A stretch of DNA of 64,000 bases. Source: Candidatus Binatia bacterium. Its GTDB lineage: Bacteria; Desulfobacterota; Binatia; HRBIN30; JACQVA1. The notes beneath the pieces were generated by a model. That model did not search any database. It saw only the letters and a list, made by a program, of their open reading frames with translations, and was not told the origin of the DNA. Position 1 is the first letter of the stretch; each line of letters opens with the position of its first letter. The stretch covers positions 140-64,139 of the forward strand of contig DATKMK010000063.1 in assembly GCA_035541895.1 (NCBI GenBank), given 5' to 3'. The translations under genes were made by a program, and so were the position numbers. Below are positions 36,164 through 50,656 of the stretch, in pieces.

Positions 36164-37216
36164 ATGGTTGGACATCGGTTGTGCGTCGCGATCGGGATGG
36201 CCGGGGTCGTCTGGTTGGGCAATTGGACGGGTCTAGCGCGTGCGCAGACCACGACCACCGAAGCCGCGTCGGTCCTGGTTTTTCCACGCGTCGTCGTCAC
36301 AGGGTCATGGGACACGATCATTCAGATCGGCAACAATGCGAATCGCCCGGCCAACGCGCGCTGCTACTATGCAAACGGGACGATCTGGGCCCCGACCAAT
36401 TTCTCCCTGGCATTTCACCAGCAGCAGCCGACACACTGGGTGGCCTCACGCGGTCGTGCCCTCGACCCGAACGATCAGGAATGTGGGGTGACGAACAACG
36501 ACTGTGACGGGGCGGGGTTCGATCCTGGCGCAATTCCTGCCCTCGACGCACCATTCGCCGGTGAACTCCGGTGCATCGAGGTCGACGCGTCGGGCGCGCC
36601 ATGGACCGGCAACGCGCTGTCCGGCGTCGCCACACTGATGCATCGGACGTCCGGTGAGATCGTCAAGTATCCGGCGGTCGGCCTGCACGGCTTGGAGACC
36701 AACGACGCGGACACGTCGTTGTGCTTGGGCGGCGACCCGCGCGTCGGCTGCCTGCACGGCGCCGAATATGCCGGTTGTCCCAAGAGCTGGATCGTCTCGC
36801 ATCCGGCCGACTTTGATGACCGCTCGTTTGACGGCGACGCGCGCTCCACCAGCATCACGGTCGTGCCCTGCTCAGAGGACTTTGGAGCGGCGATGCAGAT
36901 GCCGCTGCTGCTGCAATTCCGTCTCACCAACGAATTCGAGGAAACCTTCTCGGCCGCGACGACGATCACCTGTTGGGCCGACCTGCACTTGTCGGACATC
37001 AGCACCGTCTTCCAGCGCGACACGATCGGCAGCAACTGGCTTCAGACGACCGTGCGCGCCGCCGGCGACAACTCGTCGGGTTTTATTCTGACCCAGCAGA
37101 GCACGCGCGAGACCGCCTTTCTCGCCACATTTGCCGCGGCCGGCACCGTCCCGCCACACGAGACTGAGCCGTTGGGCAGCGACATTGTCGGATTGCCCGA
37201 GGAGGTTGGGCAATGA
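36164..37216 (+). CDS. secreted Cys-rich protein of unknown family (paralog 1)
   Basis: Signal peptide ...GLARA/QTTT and GAGGGGGA RBS. It shares SVLVFPRVVV..DTIIQIGN...ARCYY, GELRCIEV and NEFEETF blocks with the next gene. Confidence 0.75.
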   Translation: MVGHRLCVAIGMAGVVWLGNWTGLARAQTTTTEAASVLVFPRVVVTGSWDTIIQIGNNANRPANARCYYANGTIWAPTNFSLAFHQQQPTHWVASRGRALDPNDQECGVTNNDCDGAGFDPGAIPALDAPFAGELRCIEVDASGAPWTGNALSGVATLMHRTSGEIVKYPAVGLHGLETNDADTSLCLGGDPRVGCLHGAEYAGCPKSWIVSHPADFDDRSFDGDARSTSITVVPCSEDFGAAMQMPLLLQFRLTNEFEETFSAATTITCWADLHLSDISTVFQRDTIGSNWLQTTVRAAGDNSSGFILTQQSTRETAFLATFAAAGTVPPHETEPLGSDIVGLPEEVGQ

Positions 37217-39165
37217 CGATCGCAAGAGCATTGTCGTCATTCGTGATCGCTGTGGCGATCGCCTCTTCTCCGTTGCCGTCCGCCGCGCAGACCAGCCCCG
37301 ACGAACCTGCCGCGTTGCTGGTGTATCCGTACGTCGCCGTCGATACCGCGAATGGGACTGATACGCTGATTCAGCTCGGCAACGTGGCCAGCGGGCCGGT
37401 CGATCTACGCTGCTTCTACGAAAACCTCACGCCGCTGTGCATCAACGGACAAGCCGGCGAACGCTGCGGACCGGGACCGGTGACCTGCTCGGGAGCGTGC
37501 GAACCGAGCGTGTCCCGCGTCCCGATGCGAATCCGGGTGACCGCACGGCAACCGTTGGCCTGGTCCGTGAGCGCCGGCCTGCAGAATCTGCCGCTCGACG
37601 GCGTCACACGGATCGGACCGGCGGGGCAGAGCAACCAGTCCTCTGAGATTCCAGGCGTGGGCGGCGGACCATTTGTCGGCACCTTGCGCTGCGTCGTGGT
37701 GTCATCCGACATGTTCCGTCCAGCGCCCGACAACGTGCTGTTCGGTCAGGCCACCATTGTGCGGCGGCGTGGCGCACCGGAAGCATTCGATGACGACGCC
37801 GAATATCGCGCCATCGGCGTCAAAGCGACCGCCAGTACCATCAGCCGCGACGAGTTCCTCAACCTCGGCGGCCCCAGTGCCGAGTACGCCGCGTGCCCGG
37901 ATGTCGTCGAGTTCGAACACTTCTTCGACGGCGCATCCACGCTGCCGGGCTCAATCACCCCGCAGGCAGCAACCACACTCGCGCTGACCAACTGTACCAA
38001 CACCATCCTCTCGAGCATGAACGTCGCGCAGTTTCTGGTCTTCAACGAGTTCGCGCAGCGCTTCACCACGTCGACCCAGATCGGTTTCCAACTGGTGAAG
38101 CCGCTATCGAAAATCGACACCTCACTTGAGAGCCATTCCATTTTCTCATCCGCAATTAACGGGACCTTGACCGGCCGCACAAACATTCACGGCGCCTTGG
38201 GCGGCCTGCACGCGGTAGCAATTGAGTCGCACGGCGACCCGACGACTCCCTACGAAATGCACTCCGACGCCGCCGAGCTACACGGCGCGGGCGTCCGTCT
38301 CGCGGGAGACGTGCTCACCTATCGACTGCCGCAGTGCACCGCCGACTGTAACTTGGACGGCAAAGTGTCCATCGACGAAACGGTGCTCGCGGTCAACATC
38401 GGATTAGGAAATACCTCGCCGGATGCATGTCCGCCCGCCGATCGAGACGGCGACGCGAAGGTGACTGTGGACGAATTGGTCGCGGCGGTCGATAGCGCGC
38501 TCAACGGGTGCCCCGATCCGCAATCGCCGCCGACTCCCGAGGTGACGCCAGTACCGACGGCGACGCCGACGCGTAGCCCGCAAAGCGTCGGCCCGGAGAT
38601 CACTCACTTCGGCATCGCCACGGCTGACGATCGACCGCTGGCGGCTGACTCGACCGATGCGATGGGCCGGCCGATCTACGTGCACCTATTCGGCCAAGGG
38701 ATGACGCTCATCGTCGAAGCGCGTCGCGGTCAGAGCGACAGTCCGGTTGCGACCAGCACCTACTCTGAAACGGGGCAGCTGCCGGATCTGCAAGTGTTGG
38801 TATCTCGTCCCCTCGGCGATGGAATCGCGGACGTGTGCGAGGACGACGGCCACTCGGGAGGCGTTCCCGCGATTCCCACGCTCGACTTCCAGTCCGATGC
38901 TGCTGCGGCGGCGATCAACGATCTCGGTTGCCGCGCCTATGGACGGCAACCGACGGTGTGCACGCGCAAGCTTGGAGTTCCTACGGGCGTCGGGTCGGTC
39001 CAAGGATTCGCTACCGTCGATAGCACGTCTCAGGTGCAGTTCTGCATTCCGATTGCCAAAGCGTGGGCGTTCCCGGTGGGCGACACGATCGTGGCGGCGC
39101 GTGTCCGCGACCAGGCGGGCAACCTTGGTCCGGAGCAGAAAATCGTGGTGCGAGTTGGCGAATAG
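37213..39165 (+). CDS. secreted multidomain protein: paralog-2 N-domain + dockerin-like module + Pro/Thr linker + unknown C-domain
   Basis: ATGA overlap with the upstream paralog; signal peptide ...PSAA/QTSP. Blocks ALLVYPYVAVD..DTLIQLGN...LRCFY, GTLRCVVV and NEFAQRF. Dockerin-like CTADCNLDGKVSIDE...DRDGDAKVTVDELVAAVDSALNGC (38335-38511), then PQSPPTPEVTPVPTATPTRSP. Confidence 0.8.
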   Translation: MTIARALSSFVIAVAIASSPLPSAAQTSPDEPAALLVYPYVAVDTANGTDTLIQLGNVASGPVDLRCFYENLTPLCINGQAGERCGPGPVTCSGACEPSVSRVPMRIRVTARQPLAWSVSAGLQNLPLDGVTRIGPAGQSNQSSEIPGVGGGPFVGTLRCVVVSSDMFRPAPDNVLFGQATIVRRRGAPEAFDDDAEYRAIGVKATASTISRDEFLNLGGPSAEYAACPDVVEFEHFFDGASTLPGSITPQAATTLALTNCTNTILSSMNVAQFLVFNEFAQRFTTSTQIGFQLVKPLSKIDTSLESHSIFSSAINGTLTGRTNIHGALGGLHAVAIESHGDPTTPYEMHSDAAELHGAGVRLAGDVLTYRLPQCTADCNLDGKVSIDETVLAVNIGLGNTSPDACPPADRDGDAKVTVDELVAAVDSALNGCPDPQSPPTPEVTPVPTATPTRSPQSVGPEITHFGIATADDRPLAADSTDAMGRPIYVHLFGQGMTLIVEARRGQSDSPVATSTYSETGQLPDLQVLVSRPLGDGIADVCEDDGHSGGVPAIPTLDFQSDAAAAAINDLGCRAYGRQPTVCTRKLGVPTGVGSVQGFATVDSTSQVQFCIPIAKAWAFPVGDTIVAARVRDQAGNLGPEQKIVVRVGE

Positions 39166-41874: not shown

Positions 41875-42762
41875 TCACACCTTCGCGATGACCTCTTCAG
41901 CGAACCGCTCCATGTGCGGAAACAGATGCGTCTCGAACTTCGCCCGCGGGACGAAACCGGGCGCGAAAGCCATCAGACGGTGAACACCGACGTCCTCGAA
42001 ACGGCGCACGGTGTCGAGGTTGAAAGGCAAGTCGCCGCCGATGCCGCAGGTGATCTCGAAGTGAGAGAAGTCGCGGCCGGCCGCCTCGGCGAACGCGCGC
42101 AGTTGCGCGATCACCGGCGTGAGTTGATCGGGCGTGAATCGTGATCCGTACCAACCGTCACCGATCTCGGCCGCCCGCTTGAGCGCGACGCGGGTCTCGC
42201 CGCCAACAATCAGCGGCGGGTGCGGCTTCTGCACCGGCTTGGGATTGAAACCCAGCCGCGGAAAGCTCTGGAAGCGCCCGGAGAACTCCGGCGTCTCTTC
42301 GCTCCACAGCGCCTTCATCATCCGGACGAACTCGCGCGTGCGTGCCGCGCGGTCTTTGAACGGTACGCCCACCGCGTTGAATTCCTCCTCCAGCCAGCCG
42401 ATGCCGATCCCGAACAGCAGGCGTCCGTTCGAAAGCACATCGAGGGTCGCGACGGCCTTCGCCGTCGCTAGGGGATTGCGCAGCGGCAGGACGAACACGC
42501 CGGTGCCCAATTTGATGCGCGTGGTGCAACCGGCGACGAACGCCAGCGCCACCATGGGATCGTGCAAGGCCACGCTCGGGCCGCCGGGGAACTTGCCGTC
42601 GGGCGAGTACGGATACGGGGTTCGCATATCCACCGGGATCACCAAATGCTCGGGAATCCAGATCGATTCGAAGCCCAGTGCCTCGGCCTTCTGCACCACC
42701 TGCTGCAATGCTGCCGGTCGCGCGGTCGAGCCGGTTCCAACCCCGTTCATGGCGAACTTCAT
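41875..42762 (-). CDS. LLM-class F420-dependent oxidoreductase-like protein
   Basis: AEALGFESIWIPEHLVIP...GTGVFVLPLRNPLATAKAVATLDVLSNGRLLFGIGIGWLEEEF. Confidence 0.85.
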   Translation of the reverse strand: MKFAMNGVGTGSTARPAALQQVVQKAEALGFESIWIPEHLVIPVDMRTPYPYSPDGKFPGGPSVALHDPMVALAFVAGCTTRIKLGTGVFVLPLRNPLATAKAVATLDVLSNGRLLFGIGIGWLEEEFNAVGVPFKDRAARTREFVRMMKALWSEETPEFSGRFQSFPRLGFNPKPVQKPHPPLIVGGETRVALKRAAEIGDGWYGSRFTPDQLTPVIAQLRAFAEAAGRDFSHFEITCGIGGDLPFNLDTVRRFEDVGVHRLMAFAPGFVPRAKFETHLFPHMERFAEEVIAKV

Positions 42763-42913
42763 GCGCCCTCCCTTTCAACGCGATTACGCATACTCCGGCT
42801 TGATGCCACCGCGCTAGGAGGTGGCGTGTATCGTTGCGCTCAGGCCGCTTCTTCTCCACCAGTTCTTGACCGCCGTGGCGTGGGCGCCCTATAGCCAAGA
42901 CGCGAAGCACGCG

Positions 42914-44065
42914 ATGACCATCATCGACTCCGATCAACATTTGTACGAATCGCGTTCGCTGTGGCGCGAGCATATCGATCCCGCCATGCGCGATGAGGCG
43001 CTTCGGATCGAAGACGATGCGACCGGCACCCCGCGACTGCGCTGGCGCACCCTCGATATCGGCATCGCGGAGATCCAAGTGCCCGGCCGCTCCGCCGACG
43101 TCGGCGAGCGGCATCGCCGGGCGCGTGACGGTGCGCCGCCGCTCGAATCCTACGATGCGCTGCTGCCGCGCGACTACTGGGAGCCGCGGGCGCGTCTCGC
43201 CAAGCTCGCCGAACTCGCCGTCGACGAGGGCGTGCTGTTTCCGAATTACGGGCTGCTGTGGGAGCGCACCTTGCACCAGTCGCTGCCGGCGCTGCTCGCC
43301 AACATGGCGGCGTGGAACCGCTGGTGCGTCACCGTGGCGCAGGAGGGCAGCGGCCGATTGCATCCGGTGGCGCATCTCAGCCTGCGCGATCCGGACTGGC
43401 TGCGCGCGCAGCTCCGCGATCTCGGGCGCGCCGGAGTGCGGCTGGCGATGATCGCGCCGGCGCTGGTTGACGGCCGTCCACTGTCGCACCGCGACCACGA
43501 TCCGTCGTGGTCGGCGTTCTGCGACGCTGGGATCACGCCCGTCTTCCATGTCGCCGAGCAGCCGCGCGTCTTTGCCGACGCCTGGTACACCGACGATCGC
43601 AATGCGTTCGTGCCGGCGCTCGAAGCCGTCTTTCTCTACATCCCCGCGGCGCTCGCCTGCAGCGATCTCATCCTCAACGGCACGCTCGAGCGGTTTTCCG
43701 ACCTGCGCATCGGCATCGTCGAGCTGTCGGCGATGTGGGTGCCGATGTATCTGATGATGCTCGACGGCGCGACGGCGTTCACCCGCCAGATCAACGGGGG
43801 TTCGGCGTTGCCGACGTTGCCGCTGTCGCCAAGCGACTACTTCCGCCGCCAGGTTCGCGTCTCCTCGTTCGCGTACGAATCGCCCGCAGCGATCGTGCAG
43901 CAACTCGGCGGAACCGATCTGCTGATGTGCTGCAGCGATTACCCGCATTCGGAGGGTACGCTGACGCCGATCCAGGACTACGTCGCCGTCGGTCTCGACG
44001 GCCGCACCGGCGCCGCGCGTGGTTTGTTCAACGACAACATCGCCTTCCTGCTCCGCAAGCGCTGA
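42914..44065 (+). CDS. amidohydrolase_2 family metal-dependent hydrolase
   Basis: MTIIDSDQHLYE... (HxH-like start) and ...LMCCSDYPHSEG C-terminal motif. Confidence 0.8.
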   Translation: MTIIDSDQHLYESRSLWREHIDPAMRDEALRIEDDATGTPRLRWRTLDIGIAEIQVPGRSADVGERHRRARDGAPPLESYDALLPRDYWEPRARLAKLAELAVDEGVLFPNYGLLWERTLHQSLPALLANMAAWNRWCVTVAQEGSGRLHPVAHLSLRDPDWLRAQLRDLGRAGVRLAMIAPALVDGRPLSHRDHDPSWSAFCDAGITPVFHVAEQPRVFADAWYTDDRNAFVPALEAVFLYIPAALACSDLILNGTLERFSDLRIGIVELSAMWVPMYLMMLDGATAFTRQINGGSALPTLPLSPSDYFRRQVRVSSFAYESPAAIVQQLGGTDLLMCCSDYPHSEGTLTPIQDYVAVGLDGRTGAARGLFNDNIAFLLRKR

Positions 44066-44161
44066 CCCGCCCATCCACCGACCGCTTGGTTGGTGCAGCA
44101 TTCCACCGACACAGTGCATCCCTCGTGGTGTCGGCGCTGCTGTGCGCCGGGAGTGTTGTCG

Positions 44162-46885
44162 ATGCACGTTCGAGAAGAGAATCGCCGCGGCCACGCGACC
44201 GCTGCTGCTTGCAATCAAAGACTGAGCACTCGTCATCTGGGGCCTGAGCATCGGTTCGCCTGGCTGCTGACAATCGCTTTCGTCGTGTTGCCGACCATCG
44301 GCCACGCCGCCGGCTACACCGTGATCGGCTGGAACAATCTCGGTATGCATTGCATGGACGCCGACTATTCGGTGTTCGCGTTGCTGCCCCCGTACAACAC
44401 CGTCAACGCCCAGCTCGTCGATCCGCAAGGTCGGTTGGTACGCGACCCCGGAGCGATCACCGTAACCTACCAGGCGATCGCCGATCCCGAGGGATCGATC
44501 AACACCTCGTCCATCGGCAAGACCAACTTCTGGCAATTCGTCGAACCGCTCTTCGGCATCGCGCCGGCTCCGGACGTTGGACTGGCCGGCAGCGCGATGC
44601 CCGGATCGACCAATCAGCCGCAGGCGATGCTGTTGGATGCCGCCGCGGGGTGGTTCGTGGCGGACGGCATCCCGATCACGCCGCGCGACGATGCCGGCAA
44701 TCGCCAGTCGTATCCGCTGATGCGGCTGATCGCCCGCGACGCCAACGGCACCGCGCTCGCCAGCACCGACGTGGTGCTGCCGGTCTCCGACGAGATGGAC
44801 TGTCGCAGTTGCCACGCCTCGGGCAGCAGCCCGAGGGCGCAGCCGGTCGCCGGCTGGGTCAACGATCCCGATCCGCAGCGCGATATGCGGCTCAACATTT
44901 TGCGGCTGCACGATGATCGCGAGGGCGGCACACCCGCATTTCAGCAGGCGCTCACGATGGCGGGATACAATGCGTCGGGGCTGTTCGCGACCGCGACCGC
45001 CGATGCCACGCCGATTCTGTGCGCCCGCTGCCACGCGTCCAACGCGCTGCCCGGCACCGGACTGCCCGGCATCGAGCCGCTGACGCAGGCCATCCATCGG
45101 CGCATGGCGTCGACGGTCGATCCGGCCACCGGCACGCTCCTCAACGACAGCACCAATCGCTCGGCGTGTTACCGCTGTCATCCGGGCGCAGTCACGCGAT
45201 GCCTGCGCGGCGTCATGGGCAACGCCGTCGCGGCGGACGGCACCCGCGCGATTCAATGTCAGAGTTGTCACGGCTCGATGCTGGACGTCGCGGCGACGAC
45301 GCGCGACGGCTGGCTCGATGAACCGGTGTGCCAGAGCTGTCACACCGGCACCGCGGTCAACAACAACGGGCAGATTCGCTACCTCTCGGCCTTCGACACC
45401 AACAACCAACCGCGCGTCGCCGTCGATCAAACCTTCGCGACCGATCGTGACACGCCCGACGCCGGTCACTCGCTCTATCGGTTTTCGAGCGGACACGGGG
45501 GCCTCAAGTGCGAAGCGTGTCACGGCCCAACGCACGCGGAGTTTCCCAGCTCGCACGCCAACGACAATATCCAGAGCATCGCGCACCAAGGACATGTCGG
45601 CGTGCTTGCCGAGTGTTCGGCTTGTCATCCGTCGACGCCGAACACCATCAACGGCGGTCCGCACGGTATGCATCCGATCGGCCAGGACTGGGTGCAGCGC
45701 CATCCCGATGCGTTGGAGGGTAGCCACGATTCGGAAGGCGGCGATGCCGCCGCGAGCAGCGGAACGGCACAATGTCAAGCCTGTCACGGCATCGACTACC
45801 GCGGCACCGAGTTGTCGCGCGCGCAGGCCGATCGCACCTTGCGTACCGAATTCGGCACCAAACAATTTTGGCGCGGCTTCCAAATCGGCTGCTACACGTG
45901 TCATCGCGGTCCGCAGAACGACAATGCCAATCCGAATCGGGCACCGCAGGCCAGCGACGCGGCGGCGGTCACCACGGGGGACACGCCGGTGACGATCACG
46001 CTGGACGCCAGCGATCCCGACGAGAATCCGCTCACGCTCCGCATCGTGTCGCAGCCGAGTCACGGCACCGTCGCCCTCACCGGGGCGCAATCCATCTACT
46101 ATCCCGACAGCGGCTTCAGCGGCGATGACTCCTACACCTTCGCCGCGTGGGATGGCTCGACCAACTCGAACTTGGCCACGGTGTCGGTATCGGTCAGCGA
46201 GGTCGCCGCGGCAGCGGCACCCACTGTGACTGCAACGCCGACGGCCATCGCGACGGCCGCCGCGGCCAGCGCGTCCGATTGCCTTGGCGACTGCGACGGC
46301 AACGGGATCGTGTCGGTCGACGAGCTGGTGCTGGGCGCCAATATTGCGCTCGGGCTGCAACAGCCGGCGAGCTGCCCTGCATTCGATTGCAACCACAACG
46401 GACAAGTCACGGTCGATTGCTTGGTCAAGGCGGTGAATGCGGCGCTGAGCGGCTGCACCGCCACCGCGGCAACTGCGGCGGTCGCTGTCACGGCGACGCC
46501 GACGTCGATTCCACCGACCCCGACACCGACCGCGACGAGTTCCGGCAACTCCGGCGCAACACTCGCCGCGATTCAAACCACGATCTTTGCGAGGTCCTGC
46601 ATCGACGCCGGGTGTCACAGCGGCGCGTTCCCGGCCGGCGGCTTGTCGCTCGAAGCGGGCAAGGCGCACGACCAACTCGTCGGCGTTCAGCCGTCCAACT
46701 TCGCCGCGCTGCAAGCCGGGCTAGTGCGCGTCAAGCCCGGCGATCCGGACGGCAGCTTTCTAGTCGCCAAGGTCAGCGGGCCAACCGCGGCGGAAGGGTC
46801 AGTGATGCCGCTGGGCAAGCCGCCGTTGACGGCGGCGCAGATTCAGTTGATTCGCGACTGGATCACGGCGGGAGCGTTGCCGTGA
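44162..46885 (+). CDS. secreted multiheme c-type cytochrome with Ig/cadherin-like, dockerin-like and PSCyt1-like C-terminal modules
   Basis: Signal-like FAWLLTIAFVVLPTIGHAAG. Nine CXXCH motifs between 44801 and 45904 (CRSCH, CARCH, CYRCH, CQSCH x2, CEACH, CSACH, CQACH, CYTCH). Also ...TITLDASDPDENPLTLRIVSQPSHGTVAL, dockerin-like CLGDCDGNGIVSVDELV...CNHNGQVTVDCLVKAVNAALSGC (46280-46456), and a C-terminal CIDAGCH ... LIRDWITAGA. Confidence 0.85.
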   Translation: MHVREENRRGHATAAACNQRLSTRHLGPEHRFAWLLTIAFVVLPTIGHAAGYTVIGWNNLGMHCMDADYSVFALLPPYNTVNAQLVDPQGRLVRDPGAITVTYQAIADPEGSINTSSIGKTNFWQFVEPLFGIAPAPDVGLAGSAMPGSTNQPQAMLLDAAAGWFVADGIPITPRDDAGNRQSYPLMRLIARDANGTALASTDVVLPVSDEMDCRSCHASGSSPRAQPVAGWVNDPDPQRDMRLNILRLHDDREGGTPAFQQALTMAGYNASGLFATATADATPILCARCHASNALPGTGLPGIEPLTQAIHRRMASTVDPATGTLLNDSTNRSACYRCHPGAVTRCLRGVMGNAVAADGTRAIQCQSCHGSMLDVAATTRDGWLDEPVCQSCHTGTAVNNNGQIRYLSAFDTNNQPRVAVDQTFATDRDTPDAGHSLYRFSSGHGGLKCEACHGPTHAEFPSSHANDNIQSIAHQGHVGVLAECSACHPSTPNTINGGPHGMHPIGQDWVQRHPDALEGSHDSEGGDAAASSGTAQCQACHGIDYRGTELSRAQADRTLRTEFGTKQFWRGFQIGCYTCHRGPQNDNANPNRAPQASDAAAVTTGDTPVTITLDASDPDENPLTLRIVSQPSHGTVALTGAQSIYYPDSGFSGDDSYTFAAWDGSTNSNLATVSVSVSEVAAAAAPTVTATPTAIATAAAASASDCLGDCDGNGIVSVDELVLGANIALGLQQPASCPAFDCNHNGQVTVDCLVKAVNAALSGCTATAATAAVAVTATPTSIPPTPTPTATSSGNSGATLAAIQTTIFARSCIDAGCHSGAFPAGGLSLEAGKAHDQLVGVQPSNFAALQAGLVRVKPGDPDGSFLVAKVSGPTAAEGSVMPLGKPPLTAAQIQLIRDWITAGALP

Positions 46886-46915: not shown

Positions 46916-48358
46916 TTACGCGCCGGCTTGTTCGACTGTCAGATACCGGCGGACGACATCGGCCACCTGATTGCCGCCGCGCACCGCGTAGTTGGTTCCG
47001 CGATCTTCGGGATAGAGTTGTGCCATCGATGCGCTGAACAAGCCCGGAACCGGCGTTGCGTACGGCAGCAGACGCTCGCCGTAGTTCACGGTCACGATCG
47101 GCTGCGCAAAGTGGTCGCGCATGATCATCACCTTCTCGATCCAGCTCGCGTCGAACGCCGGATTCACCCGCTTGAAGTGTGGCAGGTAGCGCGCGAGCAC
47201 TTGATCCGAGGATAGGCCGAAGAACTCCTCGTCGGGATAGGTGTAGTGGGACACGTATACGATGTGGCGACCGTTGTAGTGTGAGGGTGGAATGTAGTTG
47301 GTGTGCTCGATCAAGCCCCCGTAAGGCACGGAGACGTCACTGACGTTCATCCAGTAGATCGGTGACAGCGAGCGCTTGAGGATCACGATGGTGCACACCA
47401 CGCCCGAATGATCGAGCGCGTTGGCGGTCTGTCGCCACGCAGCCGGCAGCACCGGCGTCAGGTCGGCGAGCAACACCGGCGCGACGGTGCTGATCACCGC
47501 GTCGAAGGAATACGAGCCGCGACTGGTGTCGATGCGAATCGGTGCGCCGCGGAAACTCGCCCAGTCCGGTCCGCCGTTGCGCGACGCCGCGCGGCGCAAG
47601 TTGGAAATGAACTCCGGAGCGCTTGCGTCCGACGGCAGCAAACGCGTCGGGGTGCTCTCGACCCGTCGGACCACCGCCCCCGGATGGAGCACGCCACCGA
47701 GTGCGCGCACCCGCTCGATCAGGCGGTCGAGCAGTGTTCCAAAACTGCCGCGCACGTAGCCCAGACTCTCCTGCGTCCCGCCCTTGGTGCGCGAGGTGGC
47801 GCGCAGGCGGAATTTGCCCCACATCCACACCATCGCCACCCGCTCGGCGTTGCGGCCGAACTTCACCCGCAACATGGGACCGAAGACCGCATCGGTCACC
47901 GCCTTGCCCGCGTAGCGGCGATACCAATCGACCGCGTTGACCGACTCGAACGGCTTCGGATTGGGAAAGCGTTGGAGAAACACACCGGTGGCGCCGAGAC
48001 GGACGCGGTCAACCACGCTCAACGGCGTGAACCGCAGCAGGTCCGCCGGCGTCGTGAACGGATAGACTCTGCCGCCGTGAAACATGCCCATCGGCGGCGA
48101 CGGCCAATCGATTGCAACCCCCAGCTCGTCGGCCAGCGCGATGATGTCGCGGTCGCTGGTGAACAGATGATGGTAGTACTTCTCCAACCGGGCGCCGCCG
48201 AGCACGTCGACCTCGAAGGTCATTGCCAGCCCGCCGAGCTGATGCGAGCGCTCGAACACCTCGACGTGATAGCCGGCTTGGGCGAGACGGTGCGCCGCGG
48301 TCAGTCCGGTGAACCCGCCGCCGATGATGCCGATCGATGGGGTGCGACGCTCGGCCAT
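46916..48358 (-). CDS. NAD(P)/FAD-dependent oxidoreductase (amine oxidase / phytoene desaturase-like fold)
   Basis: SIGIIGGGFTGLTAAHRLAQAGYHVEVFERSHQLGG dinucleotide-binding motif. Start taken at MAERRT. Confidence 0.85.
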   Translation of the reverse strand: MAERRTPSIGIIGGGFTGLTAAHRLAQAGYHVEVFERSHQLGGLAMTFEVDVLGGARLEKYYHHLFTSDRDIIALADELGVAIDWPSPPMGMFHGGRVYPFTTPADLLRFTPLSVVDRVRLGATGVFLQRFPNPKPFESVNAVDWYRRYAGKAVTDAVFGPMLRVKFGRNAERVAMVWMWGKFRLRATSRTKGGTQESLGYVRGSFGTLLDRLIERVRALGGVLHPGAVVRRVESTPTRLLPSDASAPEFISNLRRAASRNGGPDWASFRGAPIRIDTSRGSYSFDAVISTVAPVLLADLTPVLPAAWRQTANALDHSGVVCTIVILKRSLSPIYWMNVSDVSVPYGGLIEHTNYIPPSHYNGRHIVYVSHYTYPDEEFFGLSSDQVLARYLPHFKRVNPAFDASWIEKVMIMRDHFAQPIVTVNYGERLLPYATPVPGLFSASMAQLYPEDRGTNYAVRGGNQVADVVRRYLTVEQAGA

Positions 48359-48364
48359 TTCGAT

Positions 48365-48464
48365 CGCGTTATAGCGTTCGCGACCACAAAGCAAAACGGG
48401 CCGCAGCCGACGACGCGCCCGAGCGCGACGTTGCAATCGGTGGCGACGCGTTATAGCGTTCGCG
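48365..48464. promoter_or_regulatory. two perfect 18-bp direct repeats in a divergent promoter region (candidate operator pair)
   Basis: CGCGTTATAGCGTTCGCG occurs at 48365-48382 and again at 48447-48464 (82-nt period). The region lies between the starts of the FAD oxidoreductase (-) and the DUF2298 gene (+). Each copy contains GCGTT-ata-GCGTT. Confidence 0.45.
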
Positions 48465-48505
48465 CGCTCAAATCCAACGGACGAGAACGTCTATTCGCGT
48501 TGCCG

Positions 48506-50656
48506 ATGTGGCCGGTGCTTGCTTGGTGGATGATCGTGGAGGGCCTCGGCATGCTGGCCGTCCCAATCACGTTCAGAATTTTCGCCGCCGATGACCGCGG
48601 ATATCCGTTCGCGAAGATCACCGCGGTTCTGCTGCTGACCTACGTGTCGTGGCTGCTGGCATTCGCCGGCGTCCCCTTTCATCTCGCGCTGACGATTTCG
48701 CTGATCGCCCTGGCGGCGGTGAGCGTGGCCCTCGCGGTGCCGCGCCGCGCTGAGTTGAGTGCCTGGCTGAAGGCCGACGGCCGCGTGCACGTCCTCCGTC
48801 ACATGGGGGTGTGGACCGCGGGCTTCCTGTTCTTCGCCTGGGAGCGCTCGCTCAGTCCCGACATCTTCGGCGCCGAGAAGTACATGGACTTCTCCTTCTT
48901 CAATACTCTCACGCGCACCGACGTGATGCCGCCGCAGGATCCGTGGATGTCGGGCAAGCCGTTCAACTACTACTATTTCGGTTACCTGATGTTTGCCAAC
49001 TTGGCGCGGCTGACGCCCGCCCCCAATCACATCGCCTACAATTTGTGTGTTGCCACCGTCGGCGGACTGGCCGCCGGCGGCATCGTAGCGTTGGCGCTGC
49101 GACTCACGCGGCGCTGGCCGTTCGCCTTGCTGGGCGGCGCCATGGGCGTCGTACTCGGCAACCTCGACGGGTTCTTCCAGGTCTGGGAGAAAAACTCGCT
49201 CACCAACATCGACTATTGGCGCTCGTCGCGCGTCGTCGCCAAAGGCGACACCATCAACGAGTTCCCATTCTTCAGCACGATCCACGGCGATCTGCATCCC
49301 CACTTCATGGTGCTGCCGGTCACGATGCTGCTGCTCGGCCTGTTGCTCGACCCGAAGCTGTTCGCGCCGCGAAATGACGACGACGCGAACTCGTGGTCCG
49401 GCTTGCTGCCGTTCCTGCTGATCGCCTTCGTCCTCGGCGCGATGATCGTGATCTCGACGTGGGAGGCGCCGGTCGCCGCCATGCTCGTGTTTCTCTTGGC
49501 CGGCCGTTTTCAGCCACTATGGCCGCTGCTCGCCCGCGCACGCATCACGTTGGCGCTGCGTCTGCTCGGTGCGCTGATCCTCGGGTATGTCTTCTTTCTG
49601 CCGTTCTACATCGGCTTCGTCGCCCCGACTGTGCCCCCCGGACCCAACGAATTCTGCATCGGACCCGCCTGCATCAAGATCGCCCAGACCTCGCTCGCCG
49701 AGTTTCTCACGGTCTTCGGCGGGCTGCTGTTTGCGCCCGCGATACTGATTGCCGCCAACGCCAGCGTGCAGTTGCCGAACAAACCCGAGGCGCGGCACTT
49801 GCTGATCGCCACCGTGGCGTTCGGTATCGTCGCCGCGGGGCTCGCCGGCAATGCCGTCATTCTGCTGTTGGCGGCGCTCGTCATCGCAGGGCTGGCGTGT
49901 GCGTATGGACCCGACACCACCGGAGACCAACGCACGGGATATCTCTTGCTGACAGCGGCAAGCGTGGCATTGTGGGCGTGCGAGGTGTTTTATCTCAAGG
50001 ACCCGTACGGCGATAAGCTCTATCGGATGAACACCGTGTTCAAGTTGTACTTCCAGGCGTGGATTCTCCTGTCAGTCGCCGCGCCGTGGTCGTTGCAGCA
50101 GTTGCTGGCACGTCGATGGTCATGGGCGCCGGCGCCGCGCGCGATTGCCGCGGCGACGGCCGCGTTGCTGATCGCATCGTGTGCCTATCCGTTCGGCCTC
50201 AGCGTCGGCCGCGCCAACTACGTCGGCCGTAACGGTACCCTCGACGGCAATGCGTACCTCGCCCGCGAGCATCCCGACGACTACGCCGCCATCGATTGGC
50301 TCCGCCGCAACGTATCGGGCCTCCCCGTCCTGCTCGAAGCCAGCGGCGATCCCTACTCGTACTACGCACGGTTCTCCGCCAACACCGGCTTGCCGACGGT
50401 GATGGGTTGGGCGAATCACGAAGGCTTGTGGCGCAGTCATGAAAGCGACGTCGAACGGCGCAAGAGCGACGTGCGAAAGATCTACTCGGCCAACAGCCTG
50501 GACGAAGCCCGCGCGCTCCTCGATCAGTATCACGTCGAATACCTGCTGGTCGGTGACCTCGAGCGAAAAGATTTCCCGACCGGCCTCGACAAGTTCGCCG
50601 CCCTTCCGGTTGCGTTCCGCCAGGGCAATACGATCGTCTACCGCCTGAAGAGTTGA
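48506..50656 (+). CDS. DUF2298 (Chlor_Arch_YYY) polytopic membrane protein
   Basis: AEKYMDFSFFNTL, KPFNYYYFGYL (YYY motif), many TM helices, and a C-terminal soluble part ...GWANHEGLWR...YLLVGDLE. The track ORF part upstream of 48506 is antisense to the FAD oxidoreductase. Confidence 0.85.
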   Translation: MWPVLAWWMIVEGLGMLAVPITFRIFAADDRGYPFAKITAVLLLTYVSWLLAFAGVPFHLALTISLIALAAVSVALAVPRRAELSAWLKADGRVHVLRHMGVWTAGFLFFAWERSLSPDIFGAEKYMDFSFFNTLTRTDVMPPQDPWMSGKPFNYYYFGYLMFANLARLTPAPNHIAYNLCVATVGGLAAGGIVALALRLTRRWPFALLGGAMGVVLGNLDGFFQVWEKNSLTNIDYWRSSRVVAKGDTINEFPFFSTIHGDLHPHFMVLPVTMLLLGLLLDPKLFAPRNDDDANSWSGLLPFLLIAFVLGAMIVISTWEAPVAAMLVFLLAGRFQPLWPLLARARITLALRLLGALILGYVFFLPFYIGFVAPTVPPGPNEFCIGPACIKIAQTSLAEFLTVFGGLLFAPAILIAANASVQLPNKPEARHLLIATVAFGIVAAGLAGNAVILLLAALVIAGLACAYGPDTTGDQRTGYLLLTAASVALWACEVFYLKDPYGDKLYRMNTVFKLYFQAWILLSVAAPWSLQQLLARRWSWAPAPRAIAAATAALLIASCAYPFGLSVGRANYVGRNGTLDGNAYLAREHPDDYAAIDWLRRNVSGLPVLLEASGDPYSYYARFSANTGLPTVMGWANHEGLWRSHESDVERRKSDVRKIYSANSLDEARALLDQYHVEYLLVGDLERKDFPTGLDKFAALPVAFRQGNTIVYRLKS

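Follow-up and report, generated by a model that had tools for sequence, protein, structure and literature searches.

What does a secreted protein do in which nine heme c attachment motifs are followed by an immunoglobulin (Ig)-like domain, a calcium-loop module and a small cytochrome-like tail, and where does it work? The question is raised by a gene at 44162-46885 (+ strand) of the window analysed here, that is, the whole 64,000-nucleotide stretch of Candidatus Binatia bacterium contig DATKMK010000063.1 (positions 140 to 64,139 of the forward strand, assembly GCA_035541895.1). Our preferred reading, to which we give a probability of roughly 55%, is that the product is a tethered electron-transfer cytochrome of the cell envelope or the cell exterior, with nine hemes and a probable tenth. 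The domain anatomy on which this reading is built is firm, and all the features listed by an earlier, sequence-only reading of this DNA were recovered in place through scripted motif positions, Pfam and AlphaFold.

The evidence starts with the nine-heme region (residues 213-590, 44798-45931, + strand), as delimited by the motif positions, their invariance and a Pfam match. Nine canonical CXXCH motifs, at residues 214, 287, 336, 366, 390, 450, 485, 538 and 577, were located by script at 44801-45904, exactly as the sequence-only reading had them, and all nine are invariant in an alignment of 120 homologues. Since at least one CXXCH occurs in just 229 of the 50,700 six-frame open reading frames (ORFs) of the genome, nine of them in a single protein are not a chance occurrence. 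That the protein is an exported multiheme c-type cytochrome is further supported by Pfam PF22113 (MtrC/MtrF domain II/IV), which matches residues 365-582 with 37.6 bits against a cut-off of 30, and by matches to Cytochrome_C7 and Cytochrom_c3_2. The alignment also shows nine conserved His residues outside the motifs, seven of them invariant (H312, H445, H458, H478, H501, H504 and H514), with H250 kept in 119 of 120 sequences and H63 in 115 of 117 homologues. Nine such residues for nine motifs make nine bis-His hemes possible, and the core hemes would most likely be low-spin bis-His electron-hopping centres.

The region is preceded by a heme-free N-domain (residues 51-212, 44312-44797, + strand), predicted by AlphaFold as a beta-sandwich of mostly beta strands, with a predicted local distance difference test (pLDDT) of 92-98. 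Within it lie H63, a candidate distal heme ligand, and C64, and it matches no Pfam or NCBIfam family, even at E<=10. In 111 of 120 sequences Cys is found at both 64 and 347, and three of the six exceptions have lost the two at once, which suggests a disulfide joining the N-domain to the heme region. Following the hemes, the Ig/cadherin-like repeat noted earlier proves to be a Big_9 bacterial Ig-like domain (PF17963; residues 592-676, 45935-46189, + strand), with a Pfam E of 4.7e-13, pLDDT above 90 and Foldseek matches to Ig/Rib domains at E 2e-5. The two Ala/Thr/Pro linkers are likewise present, at residues 680-705 (46199-46276, + strand) and 766-798 (46457-46555, + strand), and are recognised by composition and by pLDDT below 50. 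AlphaFold was run on the 120-sequence alignment and its models contain no hemes. In the full model the N-domain, the Ig domain and the Ca-loop module all reach pLDDT above 90, the heme region 60-90, and linkers and tail stay below 50, while the core alone (residues 51-590) is modelled with pLDDT 85 and a predicted template modelling score (pTM) of 0.87.

Concerning the gene itself, 44162-46885 translates without stops into 907 residues and ends with a stop codon, as seen from the ORF list and the translation and supported by more than 4,800 homologues. The longest frame opens with a TTG at 44090; the ATG at 44162 has a Shine-Dalgarno-like GGAG 8 nt upstream (44150-44153, + strand, as the sequence itself shows), and the representative of the database cluster begins at the same Met. 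Residues 1-50 (44162-44311, + strand) read as a signal peptide, with a long basic n-region, the hydrophobic stretch AWLLTIAFVVLPTIG and then GHA/AG. The signal-like N-terminus is shared by all homologues that retain theirs, where a hydrophobic stretch and an A-x-A-type site stand directly ahead of a conserved [YW]T[LV][IV]GWNN. The product is thus predicted to be a Sec-type exported protein, as c-type cytochromes have to be, since their heme is attached outside the cytoplasm. Antisense to the gene runs a 1,518-aa ORF (42158-46714, - strand), which was rejected as coding and regarded as a high-GC shadow, the window having about 65% G+C.

How widespread is this core, and what accompanies it? At least 4,875 relatives came out of a word-indexed protein search, and identity across N-domain, hemes and Ig domain is 56-69% for the best 120. 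Relatives are named just "hypothetical" or "Ig-like domain-containing protein" and come from metagenome-assembled genomes (MAGs) of Binatia, Deltaproteobacteria, Acidobacteriia and Kryptonia. Among 50%-identity representatives, searched exhaustively, there were 3,672 matches at E<=1e-30, a figure inflated by giant Big_9-repeat proteins; dozens of the representative clusters span residues 45-587 or 45-680. With one genome taken per species, at least 581 genomes, spread over about six phyla, encode a core relative with 53-65% identity. The hosts include Binatia, Acidobacteriota (Thermoanaerobaculia, Holophagae and Terriglobia), Myxococcota and "delta" MAGs, Planctomycetota, Verrucomicrobiae and Gammaproteobacteria (Rhodanobacteraceae, Dokdonella and Rudaea). 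Within the window's own order the full-length core occurs in 14 of 41 genomes, with one to four copies each, and given this patchy presence it behaves as an accessory gene; it has probably spread by horizontal transfer. Judging from these comparisons, the core (residues 51-680) is a self-contained unit of a large, catalogued but uncharacterised family of soil and sediment phyla.

No solved or characterised member of this family was found by PDB sequence and fold searches or in the literature, and no description of it was found in the literature on Binatia, peat and Acidobacteriota cytochromes, PSCyt1, nonaheme proteins or dockerin-multiheme pairings. A Ferrigenium nonaheme protein was considered as a described member and rejected, being a different, membrane-anchored protein. 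The earlier remark that the architecture was not recognised as characterised is therefore fair, with the correction that the core itself is not rare, as it belongs to a huge catalogued family that has gone unstudied.

What varies among relatives is the C-terminus placed on the same core, which may consist of SLH, of PKD plus Ig, of CARDB, of BACON or of the Ca-loop module; among the 120 nearest relatives the module is present in 64 and the tail in 17. These are modules typical of surface or extracellular proteins, and so they fit a tethered or extracellular role. We regard these variable surface-type C-termini as the best indirect indication of where the family would work.

The gene surroundings give no such hint. 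Three homologue loci read by hand have no neighbours in common, and clustering of every ORF of 100 aa or more that lies within 6 kb, over 80 loci, gave no neighbour family that recurred in more than 7 of them. The core gene stands alone, without conserved neighbours.

This loneliness, together with the conservation, leads to an alternative that we consider unlikely, namely that the nine-heme core is a redox enzyme whose N-domain forms a substrate site next to heme 1. The candidate substrates would be nitrogen, sulfur or metal species or an organic polymer, and electrons would enter or leave through the remaining hemes, as in NrfA, octaheme tetrathionate reductase (OTR), MccA and MccSep. Very high conservation in about six phyla, heme-free N-domain included, speaks for such a function, as do the lone gene, its patchy, accessory-like distribution in the order, its occurrence in genera known as aerobes (Dokdonella and Rudaea) and the nearly invariant H63-C64 pair of the N-domain. 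There is also a precedent: MccSep (ExtKL), a pentaheme polysulfide reductase, consists of a multiheme cap followed by an Ig-like beta-sandwich, an arrangement that forms an active site, and thereby shows that such a cap and stem may make up an enzyme (PMC13510729). It is the degree of conservation, N-domain included, that makes an enzymatic role conceivable. However, nine conserved non-motif His for nine hemes leave no obviously open heme, C64 is usually paired with C347 and co-lost with it, which gives it the look of a structural disulfide, and no known catalytic multiheme family is matched in Pfam, NCBIfam or the PDB. It should be noted that MccSep itself is not among the PDB sequence or Foldseek matches, and its entry may post-date the PDB copies searched.

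If the protein is an electron-transfer cytochrome, as we prefer, what would tether it? The candidate is the Cys-bracketed two-loop Ca-type module at residues 707-765 (46280-46456, + strand), which reads C-x-GDC-DGNG-IVSVDE...C...FDCNHNGQVTVDC...GC and is recognised by EF-hand_1, hhalign and AlphaFold, the last giving pLDDT 93-97 and two helices. The sequence-only reading had called it a two-segment dockerin-like module. Its presence and its two loops stand, and when scanned alone (residues 703-768) it passes EF-hand_1 (PF00036) with 26.6 bits against a cut-off of 25.4, compared with just 18.1 bits in the full-length scan. It fails Dockerin_1 (PF00404), with no match at E<=10 for the module alone and no place among the 31 Dockerin_1 matches found in the genome at E<=1. 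The first of the two segments is the canonical D-C-D-G-N-G-I-V-S-V-D-E; in the second, FDCNHNGQVTVDC carries Cys instead of Asp or Glu at position 12 and so has no acid there. In 14 of 61 copies, the present one included, loop 2 has Cys at both position 2 and position 12; in 45 the two are X/Glu, and a single Cys never occurs. This pairing suggests that in our copy a loop-2 disulfide replaces the bidentate Ca ligand.

The copies come from a hidden Markov model (HMM) built on the module of the protein, which finds 61-69 of them in the genome, 61 of them strong, in very different host proteins; about 36 are C-terminal and about 17 directly follow a signal peptide. The general pattern of the class is C-x-GDC...VDELV...C...D-x-N-x-DG...VDELV...GC, and it scores below the Dockerin_1 cut-off. 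None of the 41 genomes of the order lacks the module, which is present in 7-149 copies each. The same genome has 11 places that score above the Dockerin_1 cut-off (for example C21:41332-41475, C11:71272-71454 and C122:152177-152326), and translations of the ten best-scoring are all of the GD-x-N-x-DG...AADL kind, without bracketing Cys, so two dockerin-like classes exist side by side. Aligned with hhalign, the module matches these classical dockerins with 95.3% probability and E 2e-8 over 51 columns that span both loops, and several Cys-bracketed copies score 13-21 bits on Dockerin_1; the best PDB matches of the module profile are ordinary EF-hand proteins. A disulfide-bracketed EF-hand pair with kinship to dockerins is the more fitting description of the module.

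A second copy is found in the window at 38335-38511 (+ strand; tblastn, HMM match 1e-18), internal to a 650-aa secreted protein without Pfam family (ORF 37213-39165, + strand), whose frame is translationally coupled to a paralogue at 36164-37216. Proteins P0122, P0126 and P0137 are not encoded within the window; what matches there is their modules alone.

A dockerin-like module calls for cohesins, and the search for cohesin-like partners proposed by the sequence-only reading did find them. Of the 12 genomic matches to Pfam Cohesin, 6 exceed the cut-off. Outside the window, C84:41486-45055 (+ strand) encodes a predicted lipoprotein of 1,190 aa (lipobox LIAGC) in which long Pro/Thr linkers separate four cohesin repeats and which looks like a scaffoldin in a non-cellulolytic, Binatia-like genome. 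Three single-cohesin proteins (C13:31134-32216, C94:24637-25482 and C49:121737-122693) end in Gly-Cys, a hydrophobic helix and an Arg-rich tail, an ending that we take to resemble MYXO-CTERM sorting signals. Cohesin and Cys-bracketed module coexist in the same protein in 3 of about 9 cohesin-bearing ORFs. Over the 41 genomes, Pfam-detectable cohesins number 0-15 per genome, and their copy number is uncorrelated with that of the module (Spearman rho -0.07, p 0.67). Scaffold tethering of the cytochrome is what we infer from the module and these cohesins. Cohesin-dockerin systems outside cellulosomes are known, for example in ANME archaea (PMC9012536). No multiheme cytochrome carrying a dockerin- or cohesin-type tag was found described in the literature.

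The same numbers feed a second alternative of appreciable weight, although we lean against it: the module may be a Ca2+- and disulfide-stabilised tag for folding, sorting or spacing and not an anchoring dockerin, in which case the cytochrome would be a soluble periplasmic or released protein. Such a tag would be consistent with up to 149 module copies against at most 15 cohesins per genome and no correlation between them, with placement at the N- or C-termini of very different proteins, with the failure on Dockerin_1 and the preference for ordinary EF-hand structures, and with the 14 copies that swap the Ca-binding Glu of loop 2 for a Cys pair. Binding is nevertheless favoured by the profile-profile match to the genome's own dockerins across both loops, by the copies that reach 13-21 bits on Dockerin_1, by the proteins that combine module and cohesin and by the four-cohesin lipoprotein. 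The copy-number imbalance is also found in classical systems, as cellulosome producers likewise have many more dockerins than cohesins.

The last element of the proposed electron-transfer protein is the tail, a monoheme-type domain of 109 aa (residues 799-907, 46556-46882, + strand). It contains CIDAGCH, a CX4CH found by the motif script at residue 813 (46598-46618, + strand) that is the candidate tenth heme attachment site, and Met882-Pro883 (46805-46810, + strand) as candidate distal ligand; the Cys, Cys and His of the former and the Met-Pro are invariant in the aligned domains. The tail had been called PSCyt1-like, with a CX4CH and about 110 aa. That name can stand, while membership does not follow: PSCyt1 (PF07635) matches with 16.4 bits (E 0.014), under the cut-off of 22, even though positions 3-56 of its 59 are covered, and CX4CH takes the place of the canonical CXXCH. 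TIGR03806, through the second heme domain of the SO2930 diheme family, matches at E 6.8e-5, far under its whole-protein cut-off. A profile of 16 tail sequences matches FoxE (PDB 5mab) at E 2.8e-4, with both FoxE heme domains aligned. Invariance across 16 aligned tail-type domains, paralogues included, extends to both Cys, the His, Met-Pro and R..WI.

CX4CH occurs in our protein, in all 13 full-length relatives and in five of six paralogous domains, the CXXCH paralogue aligning to the others with a two-residue gap. Five further ORFs of the genome carry a tail-type domain. One of them, C66:82636-83802 (- strand), encodes a predicted lipoprotein (about 328 aa) in which a Pro/Thr linker joins two tandem CX4CH domains, a diheme layout like that of FoxE, and it could be a redox partner of the cytochrome. 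Two others, C79:10108-12228 and C79:3791-5644 (both - strand), repeat the pairing of module and CX4CH tail; in one the pair is N-terminal, ahead of a domain of some 430 aa that is rich in His and Cys, in the other it goes with a domain of about 210 aa, and neither domain has a Pfam match. The idea that C79:10108-12228 is copper-monooxygenase-like was dropped, as Pfam gives no support for the His-rich domain. The fourth is a 1,858-aa paralogue on contig C11 with CTNLSCH, which exceeds the PSCyt1 cut-off (23.3 bits; tail HMM 4e-11), and the fifth is an SO2930-type protein with CAHCH.

In Desulfovibrio cytochrome c3, CX4CH is known to attach heme c, and NCBIfam TIGR01904 is named for it. We conclude that the tail is, as far as these profile matches tell, a CX4CH branch of the PSCyt1/FoxE-like cytochrome fold and that it probably carries a tenth heme with His/Met ligation. 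The opposite view, a degenerate cytochrome-like fold that serves binding or structure in a protein of only nine hemes, seems to us quite improbable. It can draw on the CX4CH that takes the place of CXXCH, on the PSCyt1 score under cut-off and on the lack of a confident AlphaFold fold. Against it stand the invariance of Cys, Cys, His and the distal Met-Pro even in distant paralogues, the small gap that separates the CXXCH paralogue from the others, the matches to real heme domains of FoxE and the SO2930 family, and the c3 precedent for heme binding by CX4CH.

Are there redox partners elsewhere? The genome has 18 ORFs with at least seven CXXCH, up to 19 in a single ORF, a rich repertoire that provides potential partners for an electron-transfer chain. 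Multiheme genes cluster on contigs C1 (64-92 kb), C39 (2-19 kb) and C31 (40-45 kb), and one ORF is a 19-heme protein fused to a multi-helix membrane domain. The immediate neighbours of the cytochrome gene are of another kind: a second amidohydrolase_2 (42821-44065, + strand), a luciferase-like oxidoreductase, a beta-keto acid cleavage enzyme (BKACE), an amine oxidase (46916-48436, - strand) and a DUF2298 membrane protein. The longest ORFs of the amine-oxidase-like gene and of the DUF2298 gene (47408-50656, + strand) overlap by about 1 kb, hence their true starts lie further in.

Several of these results weigh against a tethered electron-transfer cytochrome and have to be set beside it. The signal region has no lipobox Cys, and no porin, periplasmic cytochrome or other partner was seen beside the gene, in line with the absence of recurrent neighbours over the 80 loci. 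The 19-heme membrane cytochrome and the nine-heme core co-occur only weakly (8 genomes versus 5 expected, one-sided p 0.053). The module has no Dockerin_1 match, its loop 2 lacks the acid, and its numbers do not follow those of cohesins; the tail is poorly modelled. The 53-65% identity across phyla is far above that of usual surface electron-transfer cytochromes and would suit a specific enzymatic or binding function better. Finally, no sequence match to the whole protein in the PDB lies below E 0.4. Foldseek against the PDB matched the Ig domain as sole region of the full model and nothing at E<=1e-3 for the core model, with generic Ig-V/p53-like beta-sandwiches above that value, so that no nonaheme or other multiheme cytochrome emerged above noise from either search; apo models of multiheme proteins are a poor Foldseek query.

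With these points in view, the tethered electron-transfer cytochrome would work as follows. The beta-sandwich N-domain would pack against the nine-heme region, whose last six motifs lie in a stretch resembling the MtrC/MtrF pentaheme domain, and would be followed by the Big_9 domain. To this core the lineage would have added module and tail, hung on flexible Pro/Thr linkers. The module, a general tag on dozens of the lineage's secreted proteins, would most likely hold the protein by protein-protein binding, possibly to the cohesin-like surface proteins of the genome. The His/Met heme on the CX4CH of the tail would be a mobile entry or exit point for electrons, which would run along the nine-heme chain and the tethered tenth heme, between the other multiheme cytochromes of the cell and a redox partner in the envelope or outside it, for example a metal oxide, humic material or Fe(II). 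All of the following are proposed here from the anatomy: how the hemes are occupied, ligated and stacked, that the protein acts outside the periplasm, what tethers it, and which way electrons flow and with what substrate.

A bolder and improbable extension is that this Binatia-like order runs a cellulosome-like surface assembly based on a new class of disulfide-bracketed EF-hand/dockerin modules that tag 7-149 proteins per genome, with cohesins bearing lipoprotein or MYXO-CTERM-like signals as anchors and the ten-heme cytochrome as cargo. If true, the protein would be a naturally scaffolded extracellular redox module and its core an unrecognised class of environmental oxidoreductase. A conserved core family that is common in soil, sediment and groundwater and has no known function leaves a gap in reading envelope and extracellular redox chemistry from metagenomes. 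The combination of module and tethered heme domain makes this a good test protein for asking whether redox proteins are docked on surface scaffolds outside the cellulosome world, and the tail would define a CX4CH branch of the poorly understood PSCyt1/FoxE-like cytochrome domain.

How does the protein compare with known systems? With type I dockerins and EF-hand pairs the module shares two tandem loop-helix segments of about 22 residues and the D-x-[DN]-x-[DN]-G pattern. It differs from type I dockerins in that loop position 12 is Glu, as in EF-hands, and not Asp, in its four invariant bracketing Cys and, in the present copy, in the Cys pair that replaces the Ca ligand of loop 2. With PSCyt1, SO2930 and FoxE the tail shares the order of heme site, hydrophobic core, 'pGdP..S.L', Met-Pro and C-terminal 'I..WI..GA' helix; it differs by CX4CH instead of CXXCH and by being a single domain that ends a multiheme protein, neither N-terminal as in PSCyt2/PSD proteins nor diheme. 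The resemblance to MccSep is analogy only, since that enzyme has five hemes, a selenocysteine and a His/Cys heme.

Closest are the surface multiheme cytochromes. With MtrC, OmcA, MtrF and UndA the protein shares the PF22113 match above gathering score, the combination of beta-sandwich and multiheme domain, and probably all bis-His hemes, and the accessory modules of its family point to a surface role as well. The differences from MtrC and OmcA are clear: there is no lipoprotein signal and no mtrA/mtrB-type neighbour, the plan is one beta domain, nine hemes and one Ig domain instead of beta-barrel, pentaheme, beta-barrel, pentaheme, the core is far more conserved across phyla, and Foldseek returns no MtrC-type structure. 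OcwA of Thermincola potens has nine c-type hemes in one chain and is proposed as a cell-surface terminal electron-transfer protein (10.1101/641308). Nine CXXCH are present here too, to which N-domain, Ig domain, Ca-loop module and tail are added. The missing lipobox, the lack of a porin or periplasmic partner and the divergent domain plan place the protein outside the Mtr system; by analogy, it would work most like the surface multiheme cytochromes MtrC/OmcA and OcwA.

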